Below are positions 4,006 through 34,052 of a DNA stretch of 64,000 nucleotides, in pieces. The notes beneath the pieces were generated by a model. That model searched no databases. It was given only the letters and a program-made list of their open reading frames with translations, and was not told the DNA's origin. The stretch spans positions 314,709 to 378,708 of the forward strand of contig CP060229.1 in assembly GCA_023898585.1 (NCBI GenBank), read 5' to 3'. This stretch comes from Candidatus Nomurabacteria bacterium (lineage in GTDB: Bacteria; Patescibacteriota; Minisyncoccia; Phycocordibacterales; UBA918). Position 1 is the stretch's first letter. Every line of letters starts with the position of its first letter. A program made the translations under genes and the position numbers.

Positions 4006-4020
4006 CAGCAATTTGAAGTA

Positions 4021-4056
4021 AAACAAAACAGCGAGTTAGACTCGCTGTTTTGTTTT
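4021..4056. terminator. Bidirectional terminator hairpin between convergent genes
   Basis: aaacaaaacagcgagt-taga-ctcgctgttttgtttt, perfect 16-bp stem with A-run and T-run flanks. Confidence 0.6.
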
Positions 4057-6160: not shown

Positions 6161-6297
6161 GAACCTATATCCTCGTTAGGATTTTAAAAACTAACTTTTA
6201 GGTATACGGGTTTATTATTCCGGACCAGATGGTGCCACTCGTGTCTTTGGGCATATACGTGGAAATACACGATCGGTTACGTAACAGAAATAACACT

Positions 6298-6564: not shown

Positions 6565-6587
6565 TTTCACAACTTTTCGACTCATTT

Positions 6588-6619
6588 ATTCGCTCCAAAC
6601 TGGAGCGAATATTTGTTTC
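6588..6619 (+). terminator. Putative rpsO terminator hairpin
   Basis: attcgctcc-aaac-tggagcgaat with a weak T-rich tail. Confidence 0.4.
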
Positions 6620-6787
6620 GCGGTATAGTGTAAACATTGCAATTATTTTCATATCTTCGCCCACAATCGAAGATAGCGGTTCTGACTGTTAGTATCAAAA
6701 CGATCGATAGTTGGTCTCTATTGCAATCAGACTGTTTTTCATAAACCGGAAACATTTTTAAATAATTAATTTAATTTTAAATAACCT

Positions 6788-7408: not shown

Positions 7409-7435
7409 GCATTTTTATTAAGTCGAATCACAAAC

Positions 7436-17149: not shown

Positions 17150-17965
17150 GTGACGGAAAAATTTGAACACAAAAAAAGTCTCGGGCAACACTTTTTAAAC
17201 AGTGACTATGTGCCGAAAAAAATGTGCGACGCTTCCGCTCTTCAGACGGGGGAGACGGTACTAGAAATTGGACCGGGCACCGGCATCCTCACAAAGGAGA
17301 TTATAGCTCGGGGAGCAAAAGTGATTGCCATCGAGGCTGACCGGCGGGCGATTTCTGCTCTGGAAGCCAGCTTCCAGACAGAAATCGCCCGCGGTCAGCT
17401 CACCATTCACCACCACGACGCTCGCTCTCTCGACCCTGCCCAATTTAACCTTGAAAAACAAGGTTACAAGGTAATTTCCAACATACCATACTACCTTTCT
17501 GGACACCTGTTCAGAGCCCTACTTGATACCGATTGCCAACCGACCGATTTGGTTTTTCTTGTCCAGAAGGAAGTCGCTCAACGTATCGCTCGTGACCGAA
17601 AAGAATCTTTACTTTCACTTTCCATTAAAGTTTTTGGTGACCCTTCATATATATGTACGATTAAAAAAAGTCATTTTACTCCACCTCCCAAAATTGATTC
17701 GGCCATCGTGGCTGTAAGAAAAATTGGACGAGGTAATTTTGACAATCTCCCGTCTGACTTTTTTTTCAAATTACTCAACCTCGGCTTCTGCCAAAAACGC
17801 AAACAGCTTATCGGCAACCTAAGCGCTGAATTCCCCCGCAATATTTTAGAAAAAATACTTACTGATTTGTCGCTTCCTTTGGACACGAGAGCCGAGGACA
17901 TTTCGGTCGAAACGTGGCTCGAATTGTGTTCGAAATTGTATTCAACAGTCAAAACACAGACGTAA
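17150..17965 (+). CDS. rsmA: 16S rRNA (adenine1518/1519-N6)-dimethyltransferase
   Basis: QHFL N-terminal motif, SAM-binding LEIGPGTGILT, NIPY motif. Confidence 0.85.
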   Translation: MTEKFEHKKSLGQHFLNSDYVPKKMCDASALQTGETVLEIGPGTGILTKEIIARGAKVIAIEADRRAISALEASFQTEIARGQLTIHHHDARSLDPAQFNLEKQGYKVISNIPYYLSGHLFRALLDTDCQPTDLVFLVQKEVAQRIARDRKESLLSLSIKVFGDPSYICTIKKSHFTPPPKIDSAIVAVRKIGRGNFDNLPSDFFFKLLNLGFCQKRKQLIGNLSAEFPRNILEKILTDLSLPLDTRAEDISVETWLELCSKLYSTVKTQT

Positions 17966-18058: not shown

Positions 18059-18949
18059 ATGCAGGAGCAGAGTAGCAAAAAGGTTGTTGGAGCTACCATT
18101 ATTGGTTTTGCTTTGGTGGCACTCGCCTACACGGTCGGCAATTTTGGCGAGCGAAAAAACGCCGTTCAACCAGCCAGCGTCAGGGCGACATCACCGGTCG
18201 AACGCGTATCTATCGAGGTGACGGACAATGACAACAACGGTATCGAGGACTGGCGAGATCAATTTGTCACCACTGCTCCGGTTGTGCTCGACAAAGCCTC
18301 ATCCACCTATGTCAGACCTGAGACCTTAACGGGAAAAATGAGTATTGATTTCATGGAAAACATCATCCGTTCGCGCGGTTATGGTGAGTTTGGACGAAGC
18401 GACGAAGAAGTGATTAGTGATACGGTTAATTATTTGGTGAGAGAAACCGCCGATAAGCTTTATGGTAAATCAGATATTACCATCATGGAGGAATGGGACG
18501 ATCAAGATATAGTGAATTACGCCAACACGGTGGCTGCTACCTTATACCGACACAACATTCCCAACATGGATTCAGAACTCACAATACTTAACGATATCGT
18601 GAAAAATAAGGAGGAAAATCGAGTGGTTGAACTCAAATCATTAATGAATGCGTACCGAAACTACCGAGACGACACTTTGAAAATACCGGTTCCTAAGTTC
18701 TTGGCTAAAGAACATCTGGATTTGATAAATACCTACCATGCTGTATTTAAAGACATCGAAGCCATGTCGATTGCGCTTGAGGATCCGGTGGTTTCACTAC
18801 TGCGTCTGAAGCGCTACGAAGATGACGCCACCGGACTCGGTTACGCTCTAAAAAACATGTACTTGGCACTCGAACCTCACGCCGGCTTGTTCACGACGGA
18901 AGACCCGGCTGTGTTGTTTGTTATTTTTAGTCCCGATTATCAATTATAA
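18059..18949 (+). CDS. Hypothetical membrane-anchored protein (N-terminal TM); first gene of the T4SS-like locus
   Basis: ORF plus hydrophobic N-terminus; no known motif. Confidence 0.4.
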   Translation: MQEQSSKKVVGATIIGFALVALAYTVGNFGERKNAVQPASVRATSPVERVSIEVTDNDNNGIEDWRDQFVTTAPVVLDKASSTYVRPETLTGKMSIDFMENIIRSRGYGEFGRSDEEVISDTVNYLVRETADKLYGKSDITIMEEWDDQDIVNYANTVAATLYRHNIPNMDSELTILNDIVKNKEENRVVELKSLMNAYRNYRDDTLKIPVPKFLAKEHLDLINTYHAVFKDIEAMSIALEDPVVSLLRLKRYEDDATGLGYALKNMYLALEPHAGLFTTEDPAVLFVIFSPDYQL

Positions 18950-18959
18950 TTAATTACCT

Positions 18960-20342
18960 ATGGACACTTTCTTTACGATTCTCAAAAAAACTGTAGTGGC
19001 GACTGTTTTTGTGATTTTTGGTTTCATTGGAACCTACGTTCCGCAAGACTGGGAAAGCGTGAAAGTGGCAGAAGCCGGTGGAGGGGCAGGCGGTGTGGCG
19101 CAAGAGTCAACCCAGATGGCACAATTTGTAGCCGACAAGGCCTTCCAGGCGGCTTCAATCGCTAAGGAAACAATAACAGCCTTCGCCACCGATTATCTCT
19201 ACATCAAGAACTTTTCACTTGATGGTATCGCCTGGGCCTTGGCTAAATCTATCGTCAGCTCGATGGTACAAAGTCTTATCCATTGGATAAATTCCGGCTT
19301 TCAAGGCAGTCCAGCTTTCGTGCAAGACCTCCAAGGATTTCTCATTAACGCGGCCGACGCGGCCATGGGTGAGTACATAGAAAAACTTGGGAGCGTTGGT
19401 TCTTTCATCTGTTCACCGTTTAGGCTCGATATACAAATCGCCATTGCCACTCAGTACCAACTCGGCAGAATTGATCAACCGGCACCAACCTGTACTTTAA
19501 GCGGTATCATAGACAACCTAGAAGGTTTTACTTCCGGACTACAAGGAAGCTTTGGGGAAGGCGGGTGGAACGATTGGTTTGATATTACTTCTTCTCCTCA
19601 TATGTACACCAAATACGGCGCCGCTCTGTCGGCCGAAGTCGGAGCTCGTGCCCAAATCGTCAACGCCAAAGGAGAAGCTTTTTCCATTCTAGATTTTGGT
19701 GACGGATTTCTCTCCGGCGAAATATGCAATACTGTACACGGAGCTGGTGTCGCGAAAAAAGACTGTTTTATCTCCAAGCCGGGTAAAATTATCCAGGAAG
19801 CCTTAACTTTTGATCTTTCTATCGGCCCAAGGTCGCTTATAGAAGCGGACGAGGTTAATGAGGTAATCGGAGCTTTTCTTGGCCAGATCGCCAATAAGGC
19901 TATCACGGGCGCAGCCGGTTTGCTTGGCCTCGGTGGAGCAAACGGCTCTGTCACAGGCTCGTTTGACGCCAATTTTGACCCGGTCTTGTCGACCAACTCC
20001 ACCCTTGATCTAAGCAGAATGCAAAACGCCCGCGCCATCCAAAAAGACTACAACACTCTGGCTACCACCTACCGTTCAAGACTGATTGCTTTCGCTAACG
20101 ATTCTACCAACAGCGCCAGTTTGCGCTCTCAAGCTAGCGCCGGTGCCAACAACGCGCAGGTTATCATGTCGAACACTTCCTCGGACATCATCACCCTTAA
20201 TGAGCTGATAGCCGACCATTCCGATCCGTTTGCTACCGAAGCAGAACAAGACAACATAATGGTCATCTTCTCCGGACTGAATCTTTATTCGGATATAGAC
20301 ATAGACTCATCGAGAGCGGCTTGGGAAGCTATTTTGAAGTAA
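18960..20342 (+). CDS. Hypothetical secreted/membrane-anchored Gly/Ala-rich protein in the T4SS-like locus
   Basis: N-terminal TM; the start is 10 nt after the previous stop. Confidence 0.4.
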   Translation: MDTFFTILKKTVVATVFVIFGFIGTYVPQDWESVKVAEAGGGAGGVAQESTQMAQFVADKAFQAASIAKETITAFATDYLYIKNFSLDGIAWALAKSIVSSMVQSLIHWINSGFQGSPAFVQDLQGFLINAADAAMGEYIEKLGSVGSFICSPFRLDIQIAIATQYQLGRIDQPAPTCTLSGIIDNLEGFTSGLQGSFGEGGWNDWFDITSSPHMYTKYGAALSAEVGARAQIVNAKGEAFSILDFGDGFLSGEICNTVHGAGVAKKDCFISKPGKIIQEALTFDLSIGPRSLIEADEVNEVIGAFLGQIANKAITGAAGLLGLGGANGSVTGSFDANFDPVLSTNSTLDLSRMQNARAIQKDYNTLATTYRSRLIAFANDSTNSASLRSQASAGANNAQVIMSNTSSDIITLNELIADHSDPFATEAEQDNIMVIFSGLNLYSDIDIDSSRAAWEAILK

Positions 20343-20352
20343 AACCACACGT

Positions 20353-22560
20353 ATGAACGTTCTTAAGAAAAACATTCCGACTCTATCGCTACTCGCTCTA
20401 CTGCTCTTAAGTACGCCTTTTGTGGTTTTTGCTCAAGAAGGAGCTATCGAAAAAACATTGTGGTTCATTGCGAACGGTGTTTTCGGGACACTTTTTGGGC
20501 TGGCTGGAATGTTGTTGGATTGGGGTATAAAAGATTTTGTTATCGGTTTTGGTGATTCTTTTACCAAACCGGGTGGAGTGGGTTTTGTGGTCGATGCCTT
20601 GTGGGTGAATGTGCGCGATCTTTTTAATATCACTTTCATTTTCGGCTTGGTCTACATCGGCTTTAAAATGATTCTCGATAGCGACGACTCCAACACCAAA
20701 CGCTGGTTGATCAACCTTATCATGGCGGCTATTCTGGTTAATTTCAGCCTCTATATCACTAAATTGATCGTAGACCTTGCAAATATTACCGCCTCTCAGA
20801 TTGCAATAAACGGTTTCGAGACCGGATCAAAAGAAATCTCTGAACAATTCATGAATTATTTGGGCATCAACAGTGTTTGGGGCCTTGATAAAATACCTTC
20901 ATTGGAGGGTGGGGCATATGGTTACATTTTTGGAGCTGCCATTCTCTTTATCGTCGGCACATTTGTCTTTGCGGCTGGGGGAATAATGCTCATTTTCCGC
21001 TACGGCATGCTTTGTCTCTATATGGTGCTTTCCCCTTTGATGTTTATCGGCTGGGTCTTCCCCCAGCTACAGAGCGAGACTAGTAAGTACTGGAAAGGTT
21101 TTTTGGGGCGAGCCTTCTTTGCCCCCCTTTATCTTTTGCTCTTATTTTTCTCACTAAAAGTTATTGCTGGTTTCTATGGCGCAGACAATAGCTCTCCCGC
21201 CTTCCATAAATTATTTGTAGGCGGGGGTGACAACATTGAACCATCATTTTCAACAACACTGCCACCGTTTATTCTGTCCTGCTTCTTCATGATCGCTTCG
21301 GTCGTTGTCGCCAACAAACTGGGGGCCGATGGCGCCAGCCAAGCACTCCGGATTGGCAACAACCTGCGTGGCCGAGCACAGAGAGGGTTGCAACGAACAG
21401 CTATTGGAGCCACTCGATTCACGGCTTCACAAACTGCTGGTAGGATAGCGAGGCCACTTTCTAATGTGGCCGGCAATTACGCTAACAAGCAAATTACCAA
21501 ATGGCAGGAGGGAAGAGGCAGTGTCATAATGGGTGCTCTCGCCAACACGGTGGCGGGAGACACGATAATGAGAGGAGCGGCGACTAAAATGAAAGGGGCT
21601 AAATTCGGCCTAGCCAACACCTCTGATGAGGAAAGAGCGAAGAAAGACGCCATCAACAAGAGAAATGAAAACGCAGAGATAACCAGAAGAGGAGTGTCTG
21701 CTCAGGAAGAACTCGACAAAGAAAAAGAGACCACGGGAAGCATCGCAACTACCGGTCAGATTTGGGATCAGAGTCAAGGTAAAATGGTTAACCGAAGCAC
21801 CCTCACTCCAGATGAAATTAAAGTTCTACTTGAACAAAACGCAGCCAAAATGCAGAGTGTGGTCACTGGCTACTCCGACAAACAGTTGGAAGAAATGTTT
21901 AATAACGATAGGGAGAAATTTGACAGTATTGTTGGTCATCTTAAGGCCAGCCAATTCGATAAGTTGGTGAGTAGCGACGGAATTCCACAAACCGAGAAAG
22001 GTAAAATGTTGAGCTTAAGACAAAAGACCATTGAGAAAACGTTTATGCAGAACGGTAAAATCCTTACTGAGGAGTTCCAAAACCTCTCCATCGAACAAAT
22101 TGAGGCAATGGGAGACGACTTCATTCGCCAAAACGCACACCTATTCTCTGAAAGCCAGATGGAATCTATTAAGAAGAGCAGTTCGTTCACCGAAAGCCAG
22201 AAGGGCTCCTATATTGGCACCCGAAAGAAGAATCAGGTTGATATGGCAAACGATCCACACCGATTGGAGCAACTGTTCAAACACAACGCTCGAGGTTCAA
22301 CCGGTAGTTATTCAAAAGAAAAGAAAGCGATTGAAATCGCCAGTCTTCCATTCGAAGTGTTTATTGATAGTAGCGGAACACCAAATGATGTCGCTGTAAG
22401 CAAGATAGATGGTAGCGTCTTGGAACAAATTGCTAAAAAAGACACCATGACCGCAGACCAACGAAGAGAAATTGCAAAAGCTGTACGAGGTATCCCGGTA
22501 CCAAACGATAAGGCTATTAAATACTTGAACACCTCTCAAGGAAGAAGATATTACAGCTAA
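20353..22560 (+). CDS. Polytopic membrane protein, VirB6/TrbL-like candidate (signal peptide, ~6-7 TM helices, ~380-aa hydrophilic C-terminal extension)
   Basis: Topology resembles VirB6/TcpH-type channel subunits; no direct motif evidence. Confidence 0.4.
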   Translation: MNVLKKNIPTLSLLALLLLSTPFVVFAQEGAIEKTLWFIANGVFGTLFGLAGMLLDWGIKDFVIGFGDSFTKPGGVGFVVDALWVNVRDLFNITFIFGLVYIGFKMILDSDDSNTKRWLINLIMAAILVNFSLYITKLIVDLANITASQIAINGFETGSKEISEQFMNYLGINSVWGLDKIPSLEGGAYGYIFGAAILFIVGTFVFAAGGIMLIFRYGMLCLYMVLSPLMFIGWVFPQLQSETSKYWKGFLGRAFFAPLYLLLLFFSLKVIAGFYGADNSSPAFHKLFVGGGDNIEPSFSTTLPPFILSCFFMIASVVVANKLGADGASQALRIGNNLRGRAQRGLQRTAIGATRFTASQTAGRIARPLSNVAGNYANKQITKWQEGRGSVIMGALANTVAGDTIMRGAATKMKGAKFGLANTSDEERAKKDAINKRNENAEITRRGVSAQEELDKEKETTGSIATTGQIWDQSQGKMVNRSTLTPDEIKVLLEQNAAKMQSVVTGYSDKQLEEMFNNDREKFDSIVGHLKASQFDKLVSSDGIPQTEKGKMLSLRQKTIEKTFMQNGKILTEEFQNLSIEQIEAMGDDFIRQNAHLFSESQMESIKKSSSFTESQKGSYIGTRKKNQVDMANDPHRLEQLFKHNARGSTGSYSKEKKAIEIASLPFEVFIDSSGTPNDVAVSKIDGSVLEQIAKKDTMTADQRREIAKAVRGIPVPNDKAIKYLNTSQGRRYYS

Positions 22561-22567
22561 TATAATT

Positions 22568-23143
22568 ATGGAAATCACCAACGAACAACGTGACCAGGCT
22601 TACGAAACAGCAACCCCTGAGCAGAAATATTTGTATGCCGATCCGGAAAGCGGTCAGAAGATGTACGACATTGCGAATAAACACAACATTGTAAATGACG
22701 AGCAATACAATAAATACGCAATGATAGTTGGTGACGTGGTTTTAAATCTACGTAAAAGGTCTGATCTTCCAGCCTTACTGTCCAACTCACTCGGAATTAG
22801 TTCTGAAAAAGCGACTTCTATTGCGACTGACTTGATTGATTTTCTAGATCGTAAACCGATACAAAACACCGAGATCGACCTCTCCGCTGACATCGCAGAA
22901 ACTGAAGCTTCGCTCAAGGCCGTGCCACGCATACGCACCATGATGACCGACATGGACAAGGTTCAAACACCGGGCGAAAAAGTTTACTCTTCGACCCAGG
23001 AAGCAATTTTAAAAGACTCCAAACCAGCTGTTGCCGTTATGGTACCAGTCCCGCTACCGAGACCGACCGCTCCTCCTACCTCTTCTCCACCGCCAATACC
23101 GAAGCCTCAGAACTTCAAAAAAGACACCGGCAGTTGGGGATAG
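22568..23143 (+). CDS. Hypothetical protein with Pro-rich C-terminus
   Basis: ORF only. Confidence 0.35.
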   Translation: MEITNEQRDQAYETATPEQKYLYADPESGQKMYDIANKHNIVNDEQYNKYAMIVGDVVLNLRKRSDLPALLSNSLGISSEKATSIATDLIDFLDRKPIQNTEIDLSADIAETEASLKAVPRIRTMMTDMDKVQTPGEKVYSSTQEAILKDSKPAVAVMVPVPLPRPTAPPTSSPPPIPKPQNFKKDTGSWG

Positions 23144-23192
23144 TTGGAATCTTTAATAATTTTTCAGACACCACCATGTATAATGGTGGTGT

Positions 23193-23609
23193 ATGCGTTT
23201 TGAAGTTCCGCAATTCATTGAAATCGAGGATAAAATTTTCGGACCATTTACTTGGCGACAATTCGTCTATCTGGGCGGAGGAATCGGTTTGGCAGTAATC
23301 ATATTTTTTTATCTGCCCCTCATAGTATTTATTTTGTTCGGCATTCCTTTAGCCCTACTAGCCGGAGCGCTCTCTTTCTATCCGGTCAACAACCGCCCTT
23401 TCTCATTTTTTCTTGAAGCCATCTTCAATTATCTAAGCGGGCAGAGACTGTATCTCTGGAGACAGAAATCAAACATCGTACACCGTGGTTCGAGACCGAC
23501 CAAAACATCAGCTTCGTCAAGAGAAAGAAACCGTAGCCTGCGACCAAAAAGTGACATCGCCTCCCTGGCCCGTAAACTGGAATTACAAGCCCTACAAAAA
23601 ATTGAGTAA
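23193..23609 (+). CDS. PrgI/VirB3-like small two-TM membrane protein
   Basis: 138 aa, short cytoplasmic N-terminus then two adjacent TM helices; positioned immediately upstream of VirB4 as in Gram-positive-type T4SS operons. Confidence 0.45.
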   Translation: MRFEVPQFIEIEDKIFGPFTWRQFVYLGGGIGLAVIIFFYLPLIVFILFGIPLALLAGALSFYPVNNRPFSFFLEAIFNYLSGQRLYLWRQKSNIVHRGSRPTKTSASSRERNRSLRPKSDIASLARKLELQALQKIE

Positions 23610-23611
23610 TT

Positions 23612-24259
23612 ATGCCAAAATCACAAGCTTCCACACAAGATTTTGTCTCGGTAAGAGACATTAAGGAAAATGTCGTCATCAACAAAAACGGTCAGATGAC
23701 AATGGTGCTTTTGGCTTCTTCCATCAACTTCGCACTCAAGTCGCTCGACGAGCAAAAAGCTATTTTGCAACAATTTCAGCAGTTCTTGAACACGCTTGAT
23801 TTCACTCTGCAAATATTTATCCAGTCAAGAAGGCTGAACATTGAACCATATCTGGCCACGCTCTCCAACTTGGAAGAAAAACAAGACAACGACCTGATGC
23901 GCGTTCAACTGCGTGAATATGTCGAATTTATCCAAACCTTTACACAGGATGTAGACGTGATGAGTAAGAATTTTTTTGTGGTAATTCCTTACTCACCGTC
24001 AAAAATAAACATTGCTAAAGGCATCACCAATCTGTTCACCCCCGGATCGAGCAGAATGATACTGCCGGACGAGACACGTTTTGAAGAACATCGTATTCAG
24101 TTGGAGCAACGCGCGGGGATGGTATCGGAAGGTTTGGCGCGCGTTGGAGTGAGAACCATCACCCTGCAGAAAGATGATTTGGTTGAATTTTTCTACCACC
24201 TCTACAACCCGGGAGACTTGACCGGCTCTTCTCCACAAATTGATAATGAATATAATTAA
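23612..24259 (+). CDS. VirB4/TraC-family ATPase, N-terminal segment (separated from the ATPase body by one in-frame TAA)
   Basis: Same reading frame as 24263..26065; VRDIKENVVINKNGQMTMVLL... resembles the VirB4 N-terminal region. Confidence 0.5.
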   Translation: MPKSQASTQDFVSVRDIKENVVINKNGQMTMVLLASSINFALKSLDEQKAILQQFQQFLNTLDFTLQIFIQSRRLNIEPYLATLSNLEEKQDNDLMRVQLREYVEFIQTFTQDVDVMSKNFFVVIPYSPSKINIAKGITNLFTPGSSRMILPDETRFEEHRIQLEQRAGMVSEGLARVGVRTITLQKDDLVEFFYHLYNPGDLTGSSPQIDNEYN

Positions 24260-24262
24260 AAT

Positions 24263-26065
24263 ATGGGACTAAAAGAACTTCTACAACCACCGCAAAGTGG
24301 TGATCAGGGAAACAAAGACAGCATCAAAGATCAGATGATGACTCTGTCGGACGTAATTGCTCCGTCTGCCGTCAGTATAAATCCGCGCGGAATCAATGTG
24401 AGCGGTGTCACCGCGCGTGTGTACTACGCGGTCTCTTATCCTCGTTATCTAAACGACGGTTGGATTGAGCCGGTCTTGAACATGGCCAAGGAGTTGGATG
24501 TTTCTATTTTTATTCACCCGGTTGATACGGTTGATACTTTGAAGAAATTTCAAAAGAAAGTGGCCGAGGTGCAGAGCCAGATAAACATCAAGGCCGACAA
24601 GGGGGAAGTGCGCGACCCACAACTCGAAGCTGCCTACCGCAACTTGGAGGAACTTAGAGACAAACTGCAACAAGCGGAAGAGAAGCTTTTTGATGTTGGT
24701 TTTTATCTTGCAATCTACGGCGAGAATGACACCGAGATCAACCAAGTGGAAAATGAAGTGCGGGGTATTTTGGACGCCCGTTTGGTGATGGTAAAACCGG
24801 CTTTGTTCCAGCAAGAACAAGGAATAAAAAGTGTCTTGCCCTTGGCAGACGATCAACTCTTGGTGCACAGCAAATTCAACTCGGAACCACTTTCAAGCTT
24901 CTTTCCCTTTACCTCATTCGACCTTACCTCAGACACCGGTATTCTCTACGGCATCAATCGCCACAATTCTTCCTTGGTACTTTTCGACCGATACACGCTC
25001 ACCAACTACAACTCCGTCACCTTCGCCACCTCCGGCGCGGGTAAATCGTACGCTTTGAAATTGGAAATTTTGCGCTCGTTGATGTTTGGCACTGAGGTTA
25101 TCGTTCTTGATCCGGAGCATGAATACGAATACCTGGCCGATGCGACGGGGGGAAGATTCTTTAATATTTCCCTGTCCTCCAACCACCACGTTAATCCTTT
25201 CGACTTACCGCCACCGAGCAAAGATGAGGATCCGAGGGACGTTCTTCGTACCCATATTATCGAGCTGGTCGGACTTTTCCGCTTGATGCTCGGTGGCCTG
25301 ACCGCAGAAGAAGAAACTTTGATCGACCTCGCCATCCAAGAAACTTATGCCTTGAAAGACATCACCGGCGATACAGACTTTGGTGATATGGAACCACCGC
25401 TTCTTTCTGATTTTGAAATGGTGCTCGCGGGAATGGACGGTAGCAATTCACTAATCACCCGACTGCAAAAATACACCTCGGGAACCTGGTCCGGTTTCAT
25501 GAACCAACCAACCAACGTGGACATCAACCAAAAGTTTGTGGTGTTTTCACTTCGTGACATGGAGGACGAACTGAAGACCATCGCCATGTACATTATTACC
25601 AACTTCATTTGGGGCTCGATCAGGCGTCGCACCGCCAAGCGACTAATGGTAATTGATGAAGCCTGGTGGATGATGAAATCGGAGGACACCGCTTCTTTCT
25701 TGTTTAGTTTGGCCAAAAGAGGACGAAAGTACTACCTCGGCATCGCCACCATCACTCAAGATGTGGATGATTTTTTACGCTCTCCTTACGGCGTGCCGAT
25801 GATAACCAACTCTTCCATTCAACTTTTGATGAAACAATCACCAACCGCTATCGATAACATTCAAAAAACTTTTAACTTGACCGACGAGGAAAAATATCTG
25901 TTACTTGAGTCCAATGTGGGTGAGGGTATATTCTTTGCCGGACTGAAACACGTGGCTATCAAAATTATCGCCTCGTACACCGAAGACCAAATCATCACTT
26001 CCGACCCGTCTCAACTTCTCCAAATTAAAAAAGCACGCGAAGAACTGCAAGCATCACGTATGTAG
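24263..26065 (+). CDS. VirB4/TraC/CagE-family type IV secretion ATPase (main body)
   Basis: CagE/TrbE/VirB-type N-domain, Walker A FATSGAGKSYALK, Walker B MVIDEAWWMM, C-terminal TQDVDDF region. Confidence 0.8.
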   Translation: MGLKELLQPPQSGDQGNKDSIKDQMMTLSDVIAPSAVSINPRGINVSGVTARVYYAVSYPRYLNDGWIEPVLNMAKELDVSIFIHPVDTVDTLKKFQKKVAEVQSQINIKADKGEVRDPQLEAAYRNLEELRDKLQQAEEKLFDVGFYLAIYGENDTEINQVENEVRGILDARLVMVKPALFQQEQGIKSVLPLADDQLLVHSKFNSEPLSSFFPFTSFDLTSDTGILYGINRHNSSLVLFDRYTLTNYNSVTFATSGAGKSYALKLEILRSLMFGTEVIVLDPEHEYEYLADATGGRFFNISLSSNHHVNPFDLPPPSKDEDPRDVLRTHIIELVGLFRLMLGGLTAEEETLIDLAIQETYALKDITGDTDFGDMEPPLLSDFEMVLAGMDGSNSLITRLQKYTSGTWSGFMNQPTNVDINQKFVVFSLRDMEDELKTIAMYIITNFIWGSIRRRTAKRLMVIDEAWWMMKSEDTASFLFSLAKRGRKYYLGIATITQDVDDFLRSPYGVPMITNSSIQLLMKQSPTAIDNIQKTFNLTDEEKYLLLESNVGEGIFFAGLKHVAIKIIASYTEDQIITSDPSQLLQIKKAREELQASRM

Positions 26066-26079
26066 TATACTTCTGGTAT

Positions 26080-27039
26080 ATGGCGGAGCCTCAAATAGAC
26101 GATAAAGATTTATATAGCCGATCAAAGGGTAGAGGAAAGGCCATTAGCGACCTTTATTACGGCGCGGATCTAAAATCCGTCCCGACGAAAAGACCAGGGG
26201 TTGGAGACCGAATAACCGACCCCGAGCGAAGAGTGTTTAACCCCAACCAGACTTGGAACGTGCGCACTTCAACCATGCCCGGCTCATCCCGCAATCAAGA
26301 ATTCAACCCCGGCAAACCGGACATTTCGACGGAATTCACAGAGGCCCAGAAGGAAAGACTGACTCAGTCTGATTTACTAAACAAAATAGACACCCGGAAA
26401 CAAGAGCCGTACAAACCGATCTCACAAATCGATCGCTCCGCCAGAGTGGAATATTCTTCCGAGCCGGCAGTGGCATCGACGGCGCTGGCGAACAAAATTT
26501 TAGAGAAGGAGAGAGAGAAGAAAAAGAAAAAAACCACTCCTTTAACCCGCGCTAGGGTGACAGGAGTGAATACCGGTATTTGGATTGGTGGAGTGGGTAG
26601 TTGGTTGGTTTTTCAGCTTCCTTTTGCGATCGTGAGCGCGATGATGTTGGGAGTTGCTGGGGGGATAGATGCACTGAGAGCATCAGTCGGAACTATGAAG
26701 AACGAAATGGGAATATGGTACACCCTCGGAAAAGCTTCTGTTGCTACTCTTGATGGGATTGATGGTCTTATATCGAAAATAACTGGTTTCAAAATTTTAG
26801 ATCTTCCGATCAACCTATTCGCACTCACCTATATGGTAGTTTTAGCCTACGGAACCTTCTTATTGATACTTATTTACATCCTATACAAATTAAACCGTTT
26901 TAGGCCTCTGTCTGGAAAAGCAAGTGGTACGAAATACGGTTTTTTCCTTCTCGCTTTTGTGGGCTATGCTATCCCTATTTTAAACATCTTTCCGTGTTTT
27001 ATACCATGGACAATAGCTGTTTGGTTTAAACCAAAATAA
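26080..27039 (+). CDS. Hypothetical membrane protein (hydrophilic N-terminal half, ~4 C-terminal TM helices)
   Basis: ORF and hydropathy only. Confidence 0.4.
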   Translation: MAEPQIDDKDLYSRSKGRGKAISDLYYGADLKSVPTKRPGVGDRITDPERRVFNPNQTWNVRTSTMPGSSRNQEFNPGKPDISTEFTEAQKERLTQSDLLNKIDTRKQEPYKPISQIDRSARVEYSSEPAVASTALANKILEKEREKKKKKTTPLTRARVTGVNTGIWIGGVGSWLVFQLPFAIVSAMMLGVAGGIDALRASVGTMKNEMGIWYTLGKASVATLDGIDGLISKITGFKILDLPINLFALTYMVVLAYGTFLLILIYILYKLNRFRPLSGKASGTKYGFFLLAFVGYAIPILNIFPCFIPWTIAVWFKPK

Positions 27040-27119
27040 TTTGATAATTTAAAATAAAATGCCCAGTCATTAAACTGACTAGGCAAAAATAAACTGGTTT
27101 TGTCGATTGTTGACGTGAG

Positions 27120-27428
27120 CTAAATATCAAACAGCAAAACCGTCTTTTCTTTTAAGATTAAGCCTGGTTTACATTCCTCTCCAACCTCGCGATTCAGTTT
27201 ACAGATCTCATCTACCGAAAGTCCGTAAGTTTTTGCAAACAAGGACAATTCGGTATCTTCATGAGGGAATATGCAAGACTGCCCCTTTGTGTCGAAACAA
27301 TCTTTTTTGTTGAGTTTTTTTACGACGAGGTATTTGACTGCATCAGCAGCCGAAACCTGAGTCGTGAAACCCAGAGCCAGAATCAGTGCAGCTACAACGA
27401 TAGCTGCAAGTTTATTCAACTTGGCCAT
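27120..27428 (-). CDS. Small secreted protein with LysM-like segment and 4 Cys
   Basis: GAGGAGG RBS 5 nt upstream of the ATG at 27428; signal peptide MAKLNKLAAIVVAALILALGFTTQVSA. Confidence 0.4.
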   Translation of the reverse strand: MAKLNKLAAIVVAALILALGFTTQVSAADAVKYLVVKKLNKKDCFDTKGQSCIFPHEDTELSLFAKTYGLSVDEICKLNREVGEECKPGLILKEKTVLLFDI

Positions 27429-27552
27429 GTGGCCTCCTCGCGCCGTGGCGCTGCAAAAATTATGAAAAAGGGACCCCTCCTTGTCCAAGAACATTTGCGC
27501 GTCCATGCGCACCTATCTCTTTCGTACCACAATGTGCTACTTTTGGCAATAG

Positions 27553-27640
27553 GTTATCCACTGTGTTGTCAACAGGTTTTTCCACAGAGTTATTGTTAGC
27601 TTATCCACTGAGTTGGTATTCATTTCCCACAGATTAGTCA
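27553..27640 (+). promoter_or_regulatory. Tandem array of four DnaA-box-like 9-mers spaced ~23-24 bp apart
   Basis: TTATCCACT (27553), TTTTCCACA (27577), TTATCCACT (27601), TTTCCCACA (27623), all in the same orientation, each followed by a degenerate ~14-nt spacer. Confidence 0.45.
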
Positions 27641-27684
27641 ACATGTTCATAAAACCGTCCCTTCATCTGCTATTATTATAAACA

Positions 27685-28656
27685 ATGAGGGCGTTTATAT
27701 TATCTTGCTTAGTAACCTTTCTTTTAATATCCAATCCGACTTTGGCTCAGTTTGACAGCAACTCAATCGGTGCCACCGAACTCGCGATCGAACTGCAACC
27801 GGAATTCCCTCGTCCGGGCGAAGAAGTGATCGCCACTTTGAACGATTATCGGGGTGGGACCTACGGTTCTTCGATTACTTGGGTTTTGGACGGCAAAGAA
27901 ATTCCCGACGCGAAAAACCAAAGACAAACCATCATCACCGCCGGTCCGAGCGGTAAAGTGCAAACCATCGAGATCGTGCTGTCAAAACCGGACGGGGGAC
28001 GAGAAGTGATCAGCAATACTCTCAAACCCTACTACCTCGACGTCATAATAGAACCCCAAACCAGAACGCCGGACTTTTATCTCGGCCGGTCTCTGCCTAG
28101 TATTGGTAGTATTGTAAACGCGACCGCTCTTGTGAGTGGCGTTAATGGATTTCTCGACACCGATCTTATCTACACCTGGAGACTGGGACGAACCGTGTTT
28201 GAAGGCGGGCCTCTTAGAGGTCGTAACAAAATTTCCTTCGAAACCCCGATGGGAAAGGAGATGATTCTTTCGGTCGAAGTAACGAAGCCGGACGGAGAAA
28301 TAATCGCCAGCCGAGCGATGTTTGTGGCTTCGGTCGAACCGGAAATCTATTTTTATGAGGTGAGTACTCTTTTTGGTATTAAGCCGATTCCGGTTGATGA
28401 AAATATTTCACTTATCGGAAATAGTCTCATCATTCGAGCCGAGCCGTATAACCTTGATTCTCGGGTCTTTAATAATCCTGACGTAAGTGAGTGGCAAATA
28501 GACCGTATCACATCAAACAATACCGGAAGCAATCCCTATGAAGTGACACTGAAAAGAAATGACAGCGGATCCGGGTTGTCCGAACTCCAATTTCACGTCA
28601 GAGACTTGAAGCAAATATTACAAGGCGCTAAAGGGGGAACAAGAATAAACTATTAG
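27685..28656 (+). CDS. Hypothetical secreted protein (signal peptide)
   Basis: ORF with cleavable N-terminal signal. Confidence 0.45.
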   Translation: MRAFILSCLVTFLLISNPTLAQFDSNSIGATELAIELQPEFPRPGEEVIATLNDYRGGTYGSSITWVLDGKEIPDAKNQRQTIITAGPSGKVQTIEIVLSKPDGGREVISNTLKPYYLDVIIEPQTRTPDFYLGRSLPSIGSIVNATALVSGVNGFLDTDLIYTWRLGRTVFEGGPLRGRNKISFETPMGKEMILSVEVTKPDGEIIASRAMFVASVEPEIYFYEVSTLFGIKPIPVDENISLIGNSLIIRAEPYNLDSRVFNNPDVSEWQIDRITSNNTGSNPYEVTLKRNDSGSGLSELQFHVRDLKQILQGAKGGTRINY

Positions 28657-28660
28657 TCCT

Positions 28661-29863
28661 ATGAAACGTCCAGTCTTTATCATTATCGGCGCGATTCTAG
28701 TCTTAGTGTTGTTGGTGATTTGGGTATACATGCTTTTCTTCAATAAGCCGAGTGGTGGGGAAGATGAATTCGCCAATCTGAACTTTAACAACACCAACGA
28801 CCCAACCGCTATAGTCGATCAGCCTGAAAACAACGAACCGACAGTTGACGTAATGGGGAAGGAAAGATTGCGACAATTAACAACCAAACCAACCGCCGGC
28901 TACAGGGAAGTACAACGCACACCAAGCTCAACCCCCGAACTGCTCTACATAGAATCCGGTACCGGACACATCTTCTCCATTGATTTAGCGTCTGGGGAAG
29001 AGAAACGTATTTCAGCGACCACAATTCCCTTGAGCACTAAGGGAGAGATAACTCCTGATGGAAAATTCGTTATGATTCAATCAGGCTTTGGCGCCGGTAG
29101 CGAATTCGTCGTCGGGGAAATAAACCCTTCCGATAACACACTTTCCAATAAAGGTTTGAATGAACAGATTGTGAGCTTTTCCGCCACCGACAATAATACT
29201 TTCTTATACTCCATCCAAACCATCGACTCGGTGATTGCGAAAGAATATGATCCACTTAAAGAAACCCAAAAAACACTGTTCGTTGCTCCTTTCAGAGAAG
29301 CGCTGATTGACTGGGGAGACAGCGCTTCTGCTGTGCATTATTTTTACCCTAAAGCGACTAGTAAATTGGAAGGGTTTTTGTATAAAGTCGAAAATGGAAA
29401 AATCTCCAGACTGCCGATTGACGGCTACGGATTGTCAGCTGAGGGCGGTGGCGCTAATGTGATATACAGCAAAGATATGGTTGGTAAATACCAAACCTAT
29501 GTCTACAACCAAGAAAACAACGTGTCTGCTCAATCGCCGGTTAGAGTGATTCCGGAAAAATGCGCGACCGCCAACACCAACACCAGCAAAATATTCTGTG
29601 CCTCCTCAGACAACATAAAAGAGTCGGACTTACCTGATCTTTGGTACAAAGGAAAAGTAACTTACGCCGATGATCTATGGCGAGCGGACACCGATTCCGG
29701 TGGAATGGCATATTTGTTTAACGTGAAGTCTGGGAGTGGGCGTGAGTTGGATATGGTAAATCTAGTGACCAACAAAGACGACAGTAATTTATATTTCACC
29801 AATAAAACCGACGGTTTTTTGTGGATGTTTGAGTTGATTCCGGCTGATGAAAACAGGCAATAA
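28661..29863 (+). CDS. Hypothetical membrane-anchored extracytoplasmic protein
   Basis: N-terminal TM helix; beta-rich composition. Confidence 0.45.
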   Translation: MKRPVFIIIGAILVLVLLVIWVYMLFFNKPSGGEDEFANLNFNNTNDPTAIVDQPENNEPTVDVMGKERLRQLTTKPTAGYREVQRTPSSTPELLYIESGTGHIFSIDLASGEEKRISATTIPLSTKGEITPDGKFVMIQSGFGAGSEFVVGEINPSDNTLSNKGLNEQIVSFSATDNNTFLYSIQTIDSVIAKEYDPLKETQKTLFVAPFREALIDWGDSASAVHYFYPKATSKLEGFLYKVENGKISRLPIDGYGLSAEGGGANVIYSKDMVGKYQTYVYNQENNVSAQSPVRVIPEKCATANTNTSKIFCASSDNIKESDLPDLWYKGKVTYADDLWRADTDSGGMAYLFNVKSGSGRELDMVNLVTNKDDSNLYFTNKTDGFLWMFELIPADENRQ

Positions 29864-29891
29864 GGTAATATGTTTATAGTAAGATAATAAT

Positions 29892-30704
29892 ATGAAATAT
29901 TTCGCCATCTTTGCACTACTCCTACTACCGATTCTTTCCTTCGGGGCTCAGTACCAGCCTTTGGTTGGCATACCAAACGTAGATCCAAACGCTGATTTTA
30001 GTGGCTACATAGAATCCCTTTATATAATGTCGATCAGTATTGCCGGACTGTTGGCGGTTTTCAAGATAATTATCGCGGGTATAAAGTGGATGATGACGGA
30101 CATCGTCACCTCCAAAAGTGAGGCAAAAAAAGACATTCAGGGGGCTTTGATCGGTTTGTTGGTTGTGCTCGGCGCTGTGTTGATTTTGACGGTTATCAAC
30201 CCCGATCTGGTTAAGGTTGATTTAAGACTTGACCCGGCTCCAACTCCGACCCTGCAAAAATCACGTGATACTGAATACTATGCGTTGTTGGAAGAAGACA
30301 TGAAGTATGTTATACCAAGTAATGTGCCTGAAGCTAAAGCAAAAGAACTTTGTCTTTCTAGAAGCGAGACTCTTTGTGAAGAGAATAGGAAGATAGGTTG
30401 TTATGAAGGTGAGTACTATCAGACGAACGATGAGAAAGTTTGTGTCATCAGGGAGAATAATCTCGTCAAAGGTGGTGAGGAGTTTGATTGTGAATGGATA
30501 AGTAGTGAGCCACAACCTTTACAGTGTAGTTTTTCAACTATTTTTGATTGGGACAACTCTTGTAGTGTAATAAGCTGGGATCTTTTCAATGAAGGGTGGG
30601 ATTGTAGCGCCGCTCAAGCAAAATGTAGTGGAGCTGGTTTAGATTATGACACTGATTATGTTTATTCTGGTTCAGTACGCCAAGTAGAATGTGAGTGGCC
30701 TTGA
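29892..30704 (+). CDS. VirB2/TrbC-like pilin-type protein fused to a Cys-rich (12 Cys) C-terminal domain
   Basis: Signal peptide followed by two hydrophobic helices separated by a short charged loop, the VirB2/TrbC pilin architecture; then ~150 aa with 12 Cys. Confidence 0.45.
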   Translation: MKYFAIFALLLLPILSFGAQYQPLVGIPNVDPNADFSGYIESLYIMSISIAGLLAVFKIIIAGIKWMMTDIVTSKSEAKKDIQGALIGLLVVLGAVLILTVINPDLVKVDLRLDPAPTPTLQKSRDTEYYALLEEDMKYVIPSNVPEAKAKELCLSRSETLCEENRKIGCYEGEYYQTNDEKVCVIRENNLVKGGEEFDCEWISSEPQPLQCSFSTIFDWDNSCSVISWDLFNEGWDCSAAQAKCSGAGLDYDTDYVYSGSVRQVECEWP

Positions 30705-30789: not shown

Positions 30790-31518
30790 TTACCGATGCT
30801 TCCTTACAAAATACTCCTGAGCGATGGAGGTAAGATTGCTGACCAAGAAATAAAGCGCGATGGCGGCCGAGATGGAGTAGGCGACTATAGTAATAAGAAC
30901 CGGCATCACGTAGCGCATTTGTGTTTGCATGTTGCGCATAAAGTCATCCTTCATATTTGGCTCGGCTCCGGCTTCTTTTGGAGGCAGTTTGGGCATGGTT
31001 AAATTCACATGAATATACTGCGTGATGCCGGCTCCGAGCGCCAACAAAACACTTTTTTCCGTAATGTCTATCAGACCGAGAAAATTCATCGTGACAATGC
31101 TTGGTTCGGCAATAAAAGAATATAGTAGACTAAGGTTTACCTCCGGCAAGGCCACCCCACCACCACTATAAACCGAGAAGTAAAGCGCGATAATGAACGG
31201 GATTTGTAGAAAAATAAGCAAAATACTGGCAAAGGGATTCATGCCCGATTCACGATAAAGAGCCATCATGGCTTCCGCTTGCATTTGTTTGTTGTCTTTG
31301 TGTTTTTCTTTTATAGCTTTGAGTTGGGGCTCAATCTCACGCATTATTTTTTGCGTTTTGGCGGCTTTTATGGAGATAGGCAAAAGAATCATCTTAACCA
31401 CTAAAACAGTGGCGATGATAGCCAAGCCGATGTCACCACCGGGAATAACATCAATAAAAAATACCAGTGCGTTGTAGACTGGGTCGAAGAAGAACGTGTG
31501 CCAAATATTACTCCACAT
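30790..31518 (-). CDS. yidC: Membrane protein insertase YidC/Oxa1 family (short form)
   Basis: 5-TM core with conserved hydrophilic groove residues; position downstream of rnpA. Confidence 0.85.
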   Translation of the reverse strand: MWSNIWHTFFFDPVYNALVFFIDVIPGGDIGLAIIATVLVVKMILLPISIKAAKTQKIMREIEPQLKAIKEKHKDNKQMQAEAMMALYRESGMNPFASILLIFLQIPFIIALYFSVYSGGGVALPEVNLSLLYSFIAEPSIVTMNFLGLIDITEKSVLLALGAGITQYIHVNLTMPKLPPKEAGAEPNMKDDFMRNMQTQMRYVMPVLITIVAYSISAAIALYFLVSNLTSIAQEYFVRKHR

Positions 31519-31562: not shown

Positions 31563-31895
31563 CTACGTGCTTTTCAGAGCTTCGGCAATTGACTCCTTGA
31601 GTAAATTATCCGCCACTTTCCGAGAAAGGGAATTGAACTGGGTTTTTAGAATCACGATCACGAGCCCTTGATAACCTTTGGTCACCAACACCTCTCGGAG
31701 CGAAGCTACAACTCTTCTTTTTAGCGTGTTTCTCCGCACCGCACTTTTGGCCACTTTCTTCCCAACCACTACCGCCACCTTGCGGGTGGGAAGTGGTTTG
31801 GTAATTATGGTCATGGTTGGGAAGTGGTGTTTTTTACCGGTACGAAAATGTTCAGAAAATTCGTAGTGGGTTAAACGTTCGTTTTTCTTAAACAT
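31563..31895 (-). CDS. rnpA: Ribonuclease P protein component
   Basis: 110 aa basic protein with RNR-type motif KSAVRRNTLKRRV; lies between rpmH and yidC. Confidence 0.85.
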   Translation of the reverse strand: MFKKNERLTHYEFSEHFRTGKKHHFPTMTIITKPLPTRKVAVVVGKKVAKSAVRRNTLKRRVVASLREVLVTKGYQGLVIVILKTQFNSLSRKVADNLLKESIAEALKST

Positions 31896-31939: not shown

Positions 31940-32089
31940 CTATTGGGCTTTTTTGACTGTTAGTCTTGCACGTCCTTTTTGTCGGCGAGCTTGTAACACT
32001 TTTTTTCCGGCGGTGGTAGCTGATCGCACCAAAAAACCATGGGTGGTGGCGCGCTTTCTCTTACTTGGTTGATAAGTTCGTTTTGACAT
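31940..32089 (-). CDS. rpmH: 50S ribosomal protein L34 (not in the ORF track)
   Basis: Manual translation: [49 protein letters not shown], the canonical L34 sequence. Confidence 0.85.
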
Positions 32090-32303
32090 ATTTCTACAGA
32101 ATTAATACTCGGCCACTATACAGGATTACATAAATAATTCAATAGGAGCGCCATGTTCCCACGGTTTTGGTTTGGCTATTCACAGATTATACACAGTTGC
32201 ATTTCTAGATCGTAAAAATTGTGTTTTGACACGCAATTTTTTGATAAAAGATTTACAGTTTCCACACCACAGGTATAATGCAATTCACTGATCGATTTTT
32301 AGT

Positions 32304-33689: not shown

Positions 33690-33699
33690 AAAAAAACCG

Positions 33700-34052
33700 G
33701 TCTAAAGACCGGTTTTTTAAATGGGATTTAGTTCAATTCAAGTTTTTATTTTACAGAGTGTAAACTTGTAGATAAGATGAGGAATACCTGTTGTTTATTT
33801 TCAATTAAACTGTCAATAGCTTTAGATAACTGGTAGTAAAACTCGACCAAAAACTATTTTTATCCACAGTAAAAATTTTATTTACTAATAAATATTAGTT
33901 AAAACCACATTCTTCCACAATAGTATTTAGTTAAATCCACAGCTATAGTAAATAGATGATGGTTATAAAACATAGACAACAGACCATAGATTCCACTTTT
34001 GCACACTTCCACACCCTTAATAATAAAGAGTAAAATAGATTAAAATAAAAAT
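33700..34052. other. Candidate oriC: DnaA-box cluster plus AT-rich unwinding region between dnaA and dnaN
   Basis: Perfect TTATCCACA at 33860-33868 plus several 1-2-mismatch boxes (AAATCCACA, TCTTCCACA, CTTCCACAC) and long A/T tracts. Confidence 0.6.

Follow-up and report, generated by a model that had tools for sequence, protein, structure and literature searches.

A chromosomal type IV secretion locus beside the putative replication origin of a Candidatus Nomurabacteria bacterium, with six conserved partner genes outside the known secretion families

We analyzed a 64-kb stretch of the chromosome of a Candidatus Nomurabacteria bacterium (GCA_023898585.1, contig CP060229.1, positions 314,709 to 378,708; the whole stretch is called the window below) and find that a compact same-strand run of genes at 18059-30704, on the + strand, encodes a type IV secretion system (T4SS). 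The run consists of 11 co-directional genes, with one small gene on the opposite strand (Table 1). Homology to T4SS components is found for five of the 11, namely an extended VirB6/TrbL protein, PrgI/VirB3, a TrsD-like protein, VirB4 and a VirB2-type pilin, while the other six (g1, g2, g4, g8, g10 and g11) are lineage-specific partners. We consider it highly probable that this is a vertically inherited chromosomal T4SS of the Patescibacteria, in the arrangement found in Paceibacteria, which descends from the MPF-FATA conjugation machinery of monoderm bacteria and has lost the DNA-processing half. An initial annotation of the locus had suggested a reduced, possibly non-conjugative T4SS, and this is supported by the T4SS profile matches, by co-conservation in 80 of 80 related loci and by the lack of a relaxase, a type IV coupling protein (T4CP) or VirB11 in the window.

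The VirB4 assignment had been based on motifs and is confirmed by profile searches. The protein matches the Pfam TraG P-loop family (E = 9e-28) and, aligned to model positions 174-733, the NCBIfam model conju_CD1110 ("VirB4-like conjugal transfer ATPase, CD1110 family") with 359.7 bits, above the curated cut-off of 325. A profile made from the orthologue alignment, with the window copy first, matches the Thermoanaerobacter VirB4 structure (PDB 4AG5, 3.6e-49) and R388 TrwK (1e-4). Both Walker A (GAGKS, residues 258-262) and Walker B (DEAW, residues 465-468) are intact, and G258, G260, K261, S262, D465 and E466 belong to the 200+ invariant columns of that alignment. The 120 closest database proteins (85-92% identity) are, where named, all from Parcubacteria, Kaiserbacteria, Nomurabacteria or Patescibacteria; the nearest plasmid VirB4s, from Streptomyces, Embleya, Pontibacillus and Clostridium, are 30-36% identical. 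Similarity to CedB is weak (4.7e-10; 38.7 bits versus a cut-off of 700), and the match to the Mbov_0397 family (246.8 bits) is also below the family cut-off.

Upstream of virB4 lies a gene for a small membrane protein with a long hydrophobic hairpin (approximately residues 25-65), which matches PF12666 (4e-10; 40.5 bits versus a gathering score of 27) and was detected in 79 of the 80 related loci described below. The initial annotation had recognized this PrgI/VirB3-like protein and placed it directly upstream of VirB4; the identity holds but the adjacency does not, as the gene for a 215-residue TrsD-like protein (g6) lies between the two. All NCBIfam matches of g6 are partial-length and below the full-length cut-offs: VirB4_plasma (the Mbov_0397 model) at positions 99-248 of 894 (1.9e-11), the TrsD/TraD model (6.5e-5) and CD1110 VirB4 at positions 2-122 of 752 (2.3e-4). 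Alignment of the g6 family with the VirB4 family of the locus itself by hhalign gave no similarity, and the link to TrsD and to the VirB4 N-terminal domain thus comes from the NCBIfam models alone. All 80 loci have the gene, 34 alignment columns of its product are invariant, and its 2-nt gap from prgI and 3-nt gap to virB4 suggest translational coupling to both. As g6 and VirB4 are together colinear with one full-length monoderm VirB4, the ATPase is split between two genes. A VirB4 with intact Walker motifs is accordingly accompanied here by a VirB3/PrgI-like protein and by a separate TrsD-like protein.

The VirB6/TrbL-like protein was likewise predicted at the outset, including its long C-terminal extension. 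Hydropathy analysis gives a leader or transmembrane (TM) segment and about six TM helices within residues 1-320, followed by a hydrophilic tail of about 400 residues. The window copy matches Pfam TrbL with E = 0.0062, which is below the gathering score; TrbL is matched by 7 of 40 orthologues (best 8.5e-7) and TrbL_4 by one (8.4e-7). We assign the protein to VirB6 because its orthologues match, that is, by transitivity and not by the window sequence alone. The family profile has a weak match to R388 TrwI/VirB6 in the TM region (E = 0.15), the sole PDB match in the membrane region, and the gene was detected in 50 of 52 loci.

The product of g12 has the topology on which it had been proposed as a pilin, with a signal peptide and two hydrophobic helices separated by a short basic loop, followed by a 165-residue C-terminal domain with 10 Cys. 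Matches of the window copy are weak (PF18895, 0.0031; Mbov_0395 pilin-like family, 3.3e-4), and the proposal gains from the orthologues, of which 50 of 51 match PF18895 (T4SS_pilin; best 2.2e-11) and 15 of 51 match TrbC/VirB2. The orthologues are 189-396 aa long, each with a hypervariable extension of 90-300 aa that contains 0-21 Cys (alignment A9, loci L001-L080), and the C-terminal part of g12 is therefore predicted to be a hypervariable Cys-rich ectodomain. In one pilin orthologue the extension carries an SLT lytic-transglycosylase domain (Pfam, 3.2e-6), which makes it a pilin-hydrolase fusion. A VirB2-like pilin gene is hence found near virB4, as it is in 55 of 57 loci, and the T4SS profile matches reach beyond VirB4 to four components (PrgI, TrsD, VirB6 and the pilin).

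For comparison, VirB4 relatives were collected by scanning one genome per GTDB species, which gave at least 596, and the best 80 (67-90% identity) were taken with 10-kb flanks; these species-level loci, all from Paceibacteria, are labelled L001-L080. Presence of the partners was counted by profile searches among the loci with enough flank (52 or 57). The expectation that the neighboring genes would be co-conserved with VirB4 was borne out, as in all 80 loci every detectable gene of the series from uvrD to g10 keeps its place in the order and its strand. The genes g11 and g12 occur in either order (19 versus 38 loci), with the pilin gene staying within the g10-g11-g12 block, and the same flanks (uvrD-ksgA on one side; yidC-rnpA-rpmH-dnaA-dnaN on the other) are found wherever the flank is long enough. 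In 49 more distant genomes the median identities are 70% for VirB4, 56% for DnaA, 53% for UvrD, 43% for YidC and 39% for DnaN. Ranking the loci by VirB4 similarity inflates the VirB4 value somewhat, but the gap is large, and VirB4 is the slowest-evolving gene of the neighborhood at long range, which would fit an essential function.

These data bear directly on whether the locus might be a decaying remnant of an integrated conjugative element (ICE) with no present function. The relaxase, T4CP and hydrolase genes that surround the core in plasmid loci are indeed missing, but all 11 ORFs (open reading frames) of the locus are intact, VirB4 keeps its invariant columns, Walker motifs included, and is more conserved than DnaA at long range, gene order is identical in 80 species, and the homologous genes are essential in Southlakia (PMC10633639). 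The conservation data effectively refute decay, to which we assign next to no probability. No mobile-element borders were found at the locus, where the flanking genes are ksgA and yidC at a site identical in 80 species, and the flanks, the intact ORFs and the 80/80 synteny together rule out a mobile element as well. The sole tRNA gene of the window is at 54934. A gene for an Xer-type tyrosine recombinase (4055-4966, − strand) is 13 kb from the locus, and one for an rve-family transposase/integrase (62465-63241, − strand), close to the right edge of the window, is 32 kb from it.

The placement of the locus next to the replication origin, also made in the initial annotation, is reasonable: rpmH, dnaA, an AT-rich spacer with DnaA boxes and dnaN follow at 31940-35147, and the cumulative GC skew has its minimum at about 26-30 kb of the window. 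The 363-bp dnaA-dnaN spacer, which holds one perfect TTATCCACA and several xCCACA variants, is the putative oriC. All of the T4SS genes, and most genes at 842-30704, read towards it, and only yidC-rnpA-rpmH are co-oriented with the leftward replication fork, an arrangement kept in the 80 related loci. As the T4SS genes point to oriC, they are predicted to run head-on to the leftward fork.

Among the submitted window ORFs of at least 100 aa, no Pfam or NCBIfam match to a relaxase, a VirD4/TcpA coupling protein or VirB11 was obtained, in line with what had been noted for the window earlier. The only T2SSE-type ATPase in the window (47875-49629, − strand, 584 aa) was considered as VirB11 and rejected, as it has an MshEN domain and matches the type IV pilus ATPase PilB best (2.3e-129). 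In a published survey just 103 of 3,035 Patescibacteria genomes had a relaxase (PMC12102498), which agrees with a non-conjugative, host-interaction role. A true conjugation apparatus, with T4CP and relaxase encoded elsewhere on the chromosome and DNA moved between Patescibacteria or to and from their hosts, could nevertheless be envisaged: VirB4 falls in the conjugative family CD1110, the core order is that of conjugative plasmids, and VirD4-like T4CP homologues are present in 2,918 genomes, mostly far from virB4 (PMC12102498). Besides the rarity of relaxases, it is contradicted by Southlakia, where the distant T4CP is dispensable and the T4SS essential (PMC12102498, citing PMC10633639), and by family scans that found neither an oriT nor a relaxase in the 64-kb window and no integrase module beside the locus. 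Furthermore, the same chromosomal site in 80 species indicates vertical inheritance and not the behavior of an element. Taken together we regard conjugation as very unlikely.

Two further functions of related systems were sought. A VirB8-like (NTF2-fold) bitopic protein was not found among g1 and g2 (all-helical models), g10 (Ig-like) and g11 (TolB-like propeller), which agrees with the rarity of VirB8 outside class ABY1 (PMC12102498). Pfam and NCBIfam scans of the 11 locus genes gave no VirB1-type hydrolase domain. The gene for a LysM/M23 peptidase upstream of uvrD is the sole peptidoglycan hydrolase gene near the locus and is syntenic in the 12 loci where the flank reaches it; its product could possibly act as a VirB1-type helper, a suggestion we make with low confidence. 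Extra M23 or LysM domains have been reported in some patescibacterial VirB1 homologues, and an association of VirB1 homologues with virB4 is described for Paceibacteria (PMC12102498).

None of the six conserved partners matches a T4SS family in Pfam or NCBIfam, which upholds the earlier suspicion that several components may be novel. The product of g1, detected in 48 of 52 loci, has no Pfam or NCBIfam family at all. That of g2, in 50 of 52 loci, contains a conserved domain with a WINSGFxGxPAFV motif and four near-invariant Cys, and its C-terminal three-helix bundle is confidently predicted in the structure model; no Pfam or NCBIfam model matched the window copy, and the family counts 5,117 representatives at 50% identity (E<=1e-3), or 2,154 at 1e-30. 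Both g10 and g11 were found in 57 of 57 loci. The orthologues of g10 (n = 61) match BiPBP_C (29), Ig_3 (12) and PKD_3 (9), and the family profile matches an Ig domain of phage T4 Hoc (2.9e-6). The g11 profile matches the TolB propeller (7e-6 to 1.8e-5), its orthologues have weak Pfam matches to PD40, DPPIV_N and propeller families, and the Cys pair C301 and C313 is invariant. For g4 neither a TM segment nor a family match was found; a + strand ORF nevertheless occupies the slot between VirB6 and PrgI in 62 of 62 loci, is without a hydrophobic segment in 57 of the 62, and shares the N-terminal motif. By tblastn g8 is detected in only 16 of 80 loci, but where it is missed a + strand polytopic membrane ORF lies between virB4 and g10 in about 40 of 49. 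Thus g4 and g8 appear to be fast-evolving genes in conserved slots. Searches of the PDB with profiles of g1, g2, g4, g6 and the pilin returned nothing or coiled-coil noise.

It could be argued that the machine consists of the five T4SS-homologous genes only, and that g1, g2, g10 and g11 (and g4 and g8) encode unrelated envelope proteins which share the origin-proximal neighborhood. The housekeeping flanks (uvrD, ksgA, yidC, dnaA) are just as syntenic, neither g1 nor g2 gave a match to a T4SS fold or family, and Ig-like and TolB-like folds are generic. Moreover, in two loci, L037 and L075 (1-10000), no g1, g2 or VirB6 was detected upstream of prgI, and in L037 (1-9000) the gene for the M23/LysM peptidase abuts prgI, the uvrD-ksgA-g1-g2-virB6 block being gone from the site as a unit, from which it follows that virB6 and the upstream partners can be encoded away from virB4. 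On the other hand, the junctions are tight (10 bp for g1-g2, 10 bp for g2-virB6, 4 bp for g10-g11 and 28 bp for g11-g12) with no terminator-like sites between g1, g2 and virB6 or between g10, g11 and g12, the partners are present in 48-57 of 52-57 loci, and the pilin gene swaps with g11 yet remains inside the g10-g11-g12 block. Furthermore g1, g2, g10 and g11 have TM anchors or signal peptides, with conserved Cys pairs among the partners, and this extracytoplasmic location is as expected for the missing wall-spanning parts. Because of the tight coupling, the envelope location and the near-universal presence we favor membership of the partners in the machine, and consider the five-gene version unlikely.

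A monophyletic Patescibacteria VirB4 clade, nested in MPF-FATA, has been described in 2,407 of 3,035 assemblies (Quinonero-Coronel et al., 2025, Microb Genom, PMC12102498). TrsD, VirB3, VirB6 and VirB2-like pilins are encoded near virB4 in these genomes, whereas VirB8 is rare, and in Paceibacteria the neighbors of virB4 are dnaA, dnaN, rnpA, ksgA and rpmH, which the authors read as a gene-dosage effect. The window locus agrees with this arrangement in all these components and neighbors and in having no relaxase or T4CP nearby, and no difference at the level of the system was found. In Southlakia epibionticum the T4SS and a pilin array are essential for epibiotic growth according to Tn-seq (Wang et al., 2023, Cell, PMC10633639). 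The cluster of strain ML1 (SEML1_0006-0019) shares with the window locus the order PrgI, TrsD-like protein, VirB4, VirB6-like proteins with long extensions, PF18895 pilins and the lack of a relaxase or T4CP. In contrast, Southlakia has six short tandem pilins (~100-185 aa) where the window locus has one long pilin, lysozyme/CHAP and DD-peptidase genes directly after virB4 where the window operon has no hydrolase, and an NTF2-like (VirB8-like) protein for which the window locus gave no candidate; the window locus in turn has g8, the Ig-repeat protein and the TolB-like propeller downstream and g1 and g2 upstream.

Compared with the MPF-FATA conjugative T4SSs on plasmids and ICEs of Firmicutes and Actinobacteria (CTn2/CD1110), VirB4 passes the CD1110 cut-off, the core order (polytopic membrane protein, PrgI, sometimes a small protein, VirB4) is the same, and a separate TrsD protein is also found in pGO1 (TrsC-TrsD-TrsE). 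The plasmid loci, however, have MobC and relaxase, VirD4 and an SLT or NlpC/P60 hydrolase around the core, none of which is in the window locus, and Gram-positive systems are without VirB2 pilins (PMC12857230), whereas the window locus has one. Likeness to the Mycoplasma ICE T4SS (g6 to the N-terminal part of Mbov_0397, 1.9e-11; the pilin to Mbov_0395, 3.3e-4; VirB4, 246.8 bits) stays below the family cut-offs throughout, and the mycoplasma system resides on a mobile ICE with DNA-transfer functions. ComB of H. pylori and archaeal Ced are T4SS-derived and work without a relaxase, which makes a functional analogy possible; no ComB- or Ced-specific components were detected at the locus. The system has been published before, together with its lack of a relaxase and its location near dnaA (Wang et al., 2023; Quinonero-Coronel et al., 2025), and the locus is not a new kind of system. 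What we add are fold-level descriptions and conservation counts for g1, g2, g4, g8, g10 and g11 and the finding that the single pilin is always long-tailed; the remaining novelty lies in the uncharacterized conserved partners.

PrgI/VirB3, VirB6 and VirB4 constitute the known inner-membrane platform of T4SSs. We infer from gene content and conservation a VirB4-driven pilus or conduit to the host cell. In such a machine, PrgI and VirB6 would form the membrane channel and the platform for pilin extraction, and VirB4 hexamers, docked via PrgI and TrsD, would power extraction and polymerization of the pilin into a short pilus-like tube, the exterior of which would be decorated by the variable Cys-rich ectodomain. 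The putatively disulfide-bearing extracytoplasmic partners g1, g2, g10 and g11 could build or stabilize the wall-spanning, host-contacting part and would then replace the VirB8 and VirB1 modules of Gram-positive systems. The assembled machine would join the epibiont to the host cell and move macromolecules other than relaxase-piloted DNA, by export of proteins or by import of host material such as nucleic acids, and its position beside oriC would provide a high gene dosage.

A possible, although somewhat doubtful, variant is an uptake machine like ComB or Ced, in which the pilus pierces the host envelope and VirB4 drives import of host DNA, RNA or other cytoplasmic material. There is no coupling protein of the export type beside the locus, VirB4 has the weak similarity to CedB, and 9-12 kb upstream are the genes for polynucleotide phosphorylase (PNPase), a NYN nuclease-domain protein and S15. 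A 2026 preprint on a cultured patescibacterium that feeds on host RNA describes tubular structures where it meets its host, which may be T4SS pili (bioRxiv 10.64898/2026.06.21.733656), and a 2025 review, in which the system is called the first essential T4SS, speculates on a pilus conduit and on uptake through the pilus (PMC12857230). However, no component specific to import systems was identified at the locus, the CedB match is far weaker than those to the conjugative VirB4 families, and the sequence is compatible with transport in either direction. In Southlakia natural transformation needs ComEC and type IV pili, and loss of comEC is tolerated while loss of the T4SS is not (PMC12857230), so that DNA uptake for competence should not be the essential role. 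A more far-reaching proposal, which we consider quite unlikely, is that the six partners and the long-tailed pilin make up an outer apparatus specific to Paceibacteria. It would span the wall and penetrate the host as a tip complex unparalleled among known T4SSs, and through it the machine would become an essential conduit that imports host macromolecules such as RNA. The foremost candidates for such an apparatus are g10, g11 and the family of g2, for which more than 5,000 sequence clusters exist and databases offer no model.

Several observations speak against our preferred interpretation, a vertically inherited T4SS that has lost DNA processing, or limit how far it can be taken. The window copies of VirB6 and the pilin score below the Pfam gathering thresholds and are assigned through their orthologues, and the 165-aa C-terminal domain of the pilin is unlike that of any pilin shown to polymerize. 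The proposed function comes from gene content and conservation, which would fit transport in either direction. Other parts of the 995-kb genome could hold genes for a T4CP or a relaxase. For g1 and g2 only generic helical-bundle matches were obtained, and their suggested role in the machine is positional; as the housekeeping flanks are equally syntenic, colinearity alone is no proof that g1, g2, g10 and g11 belong to the T4SS, and L037 lacks the block with g1, g2 and virB6 at its usual position. Finally, the head-on orientation of the T4SS genes is unusual for highly expressed genes.

The locus is organized in two blocks. A terminator-like hairpin lies between ksgA and g1, the eight genes g1-g8 (18059-27039) are separated by gaps of 2-49 bp, and the three genes g10-g12 (27685-30704) follow after a 645-bp insertion. 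Within the first block, 27 of 76 loci have a TATAAT box (often TGTATAAT) that begins 12-14 nt ahead of the prgI ATG, and 33 of 76 have one within 40 nt of it, compared with 3-9% upstream of the internal genes g3, g7 and g11; the box was noted in L001-L031. In the window, L002 and L003 it lies in the loop of a 9-10-bp inverted repeat, which in the window is a perfect 10 bp. The element is probably an internal promoter or operator that would give a near-leaderless prgI-trsD-virB4 transcript with a predicted start at about 23191-23193, and the inverted repeat enclosing the box may be an operator.

The insertion between g8 and g10, of approximately 620-645 bp, is found in the window (27040-27684) and two close relatives only (L003, 6652-7275; L006, 12730-13342), while most closer relatives with a detectable g8 have a g8-g10 gap of 40-90 bp. 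In the window it carries the minus-strand gene of USN92558.1 ("LysM peptidoglycan-binding domain-containing protein"), whose product has a signal peptide; the gene is preceded by a promoter-like site (27487-27459) and followed by a terminator-like site (27085-27060). No tblastn match to this protein was found in the 80 loci, and the insertions in L003 and L006 have analogous minus-strand ORFs for small, fast-evolving secreted proteins, so the LysM gene is probably a lineage-variable, accessory insertion. The initial annotation counted 13 co-directional genes; the same-strand run is real but it comprises 11 genes, and the ORF at 27261-27599 (+), which is in no protein collection and lies opposite the annotated LysM gene, is spurious. 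In the insertion the 14-mer TTWTCCACWGWGTT also recurs at a spacing of 22-24 bp, always on one strand; it has exact matches nowhere else in the 64 kb. This array is not conserved upstream of g10 in 64 related loci and TRF calls no array; it could possibly bind a regulator. In NCBI, where entries identical to several locus proteins exist (locus tags KC865_010xx, USN9255x), VirB4 is named "DUF87 domain-containing protein" and the other + strand locus genes that were looked up are "hypothetical".

Table 1. Features of the T4SS locus and its surroundings (window coordinates).
Feature	Position	Strand	Description or basis
LysM + M23 peptidase	13647-14642	-	Peptidase_M23 4.9e-28, LysM 2.1e-26; 3.4 kb upstream of the locus
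uvrD	15010-16974		5' flank
ksgA	17150-17965		5' flank
g1	18059-18949	+	N-terminal TM anchor, extracytoplasmic helical (four-helix-bundle-like) domain
g2	18960-20342	+	N-terminal TM anchor, Gly-rich linker, conserved domain, C-terminal three-helix bundle
virB6	20353-22560	+	Extended VirB6/TrbL-like polytopic membrane protein; TrbL family, hydropathy
g4	22568-23143	+	Soluble TM-less protein, conserved N-terminal helical motif, Pro-rich variable tail
Inverted repeat	23168-23192	+	Perfect 10-bp repeat (ACACCACCAT / ATGGTGGTGT) around TGTATAAT, 8 nt before the prgI ATG
prgI	23193-23609	+	PrgI/VirB3-like small membrane protein; PF12666
g6	23612-24259	+	TrsD-like soluble protein, 215 aa, putative detached VirB4 N-terminal domain; NCBIfam partial matches
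virB4	24263-26065	+	VirB4-family ATPase, 600 aa, MPF-FATA / CD1110-type; profile matches, Walker motifs
g8	26080-27039	+	~165 aa disordered cytoplasmic N-terminus, then 3-4 TM helices (hydropathy)
LysM gene	27120-27428	-	Small secreted LysM-domain protein; USN92558.1, exact sequence
14-mer array	27554-27631	+	Three exact copies of TTWTCCACWGWGTT and a fourth degenerate copy; DnaA-box-like, upstream of g10
g10	27685-28656	+	Secreted, cleavable signal peptide, about three Ig-like beta-sandwich repeats
g11	28661-29863	+	N-terminally anchored TolB-like beta-propeller (TM segment 5-23)
g12	29892-30704	+	VirB2/TrbC-type T4SS pilin; PF18895 via orthologues, topology
yidC	30790-31518	-	3' flank
rnpA	31563-31895	-	3' flank
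rpmH	31940-32089	-	Origin context
dnaA	32304-33689	+	Origin context
dnaA-dnaN spacer	33690-34052		Putative oriC; AT-rich, DnaA boxes
dnaN	34053-35147	+	Origin context

Some other genes of the window deserve mention. S15, the NYN-domain (nuclease-type) protein and PNPase are encoded together at 6229-9577, about 9-12 kb upstream of the T4SS, and PNPase has been proposed to be central to host-RNA feeding in the cultured patescibacterium (bioRxiv 10.64898/2026.06.21.733656). After the PNPase gene, 9623-11434 encodes a conserved 603-aa protein with no Pfam or NCBIfam match, and on its other side are genes for a small DksA/TraR-type zinc-finger protein and a ComM/Mg-chelatase-like ATPase; in L037 a gene of comparable length (3600-5387, 595 aa) has the same relative position. 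Two genes near the PilB-type ATPase, 41036-44098 (1020 aa) and 45384-47462 (692 aa), have no family match and may encode pilus- or surface-related proteins, with ruvB (44195-45187, − strand) between them. Two tandem M14 zinc carboxypeptidase genes are located at 842-2733; neither these nor the Xer recombinase and rve transposase genes adjoin the T4SS.

Much of bacterial diversity belongs to the ultra-small Patescibacteria, which live attached to other microbes, and no T4SS before theirs had been shown to be essential for the bacterium carrying it. The locus described here is a clean and complete example from the Paceibacteria, with a parts list of five core genes, six partners and a probable internal promoter, and this list can guide structural and genetic work in the few cultivable relatives.

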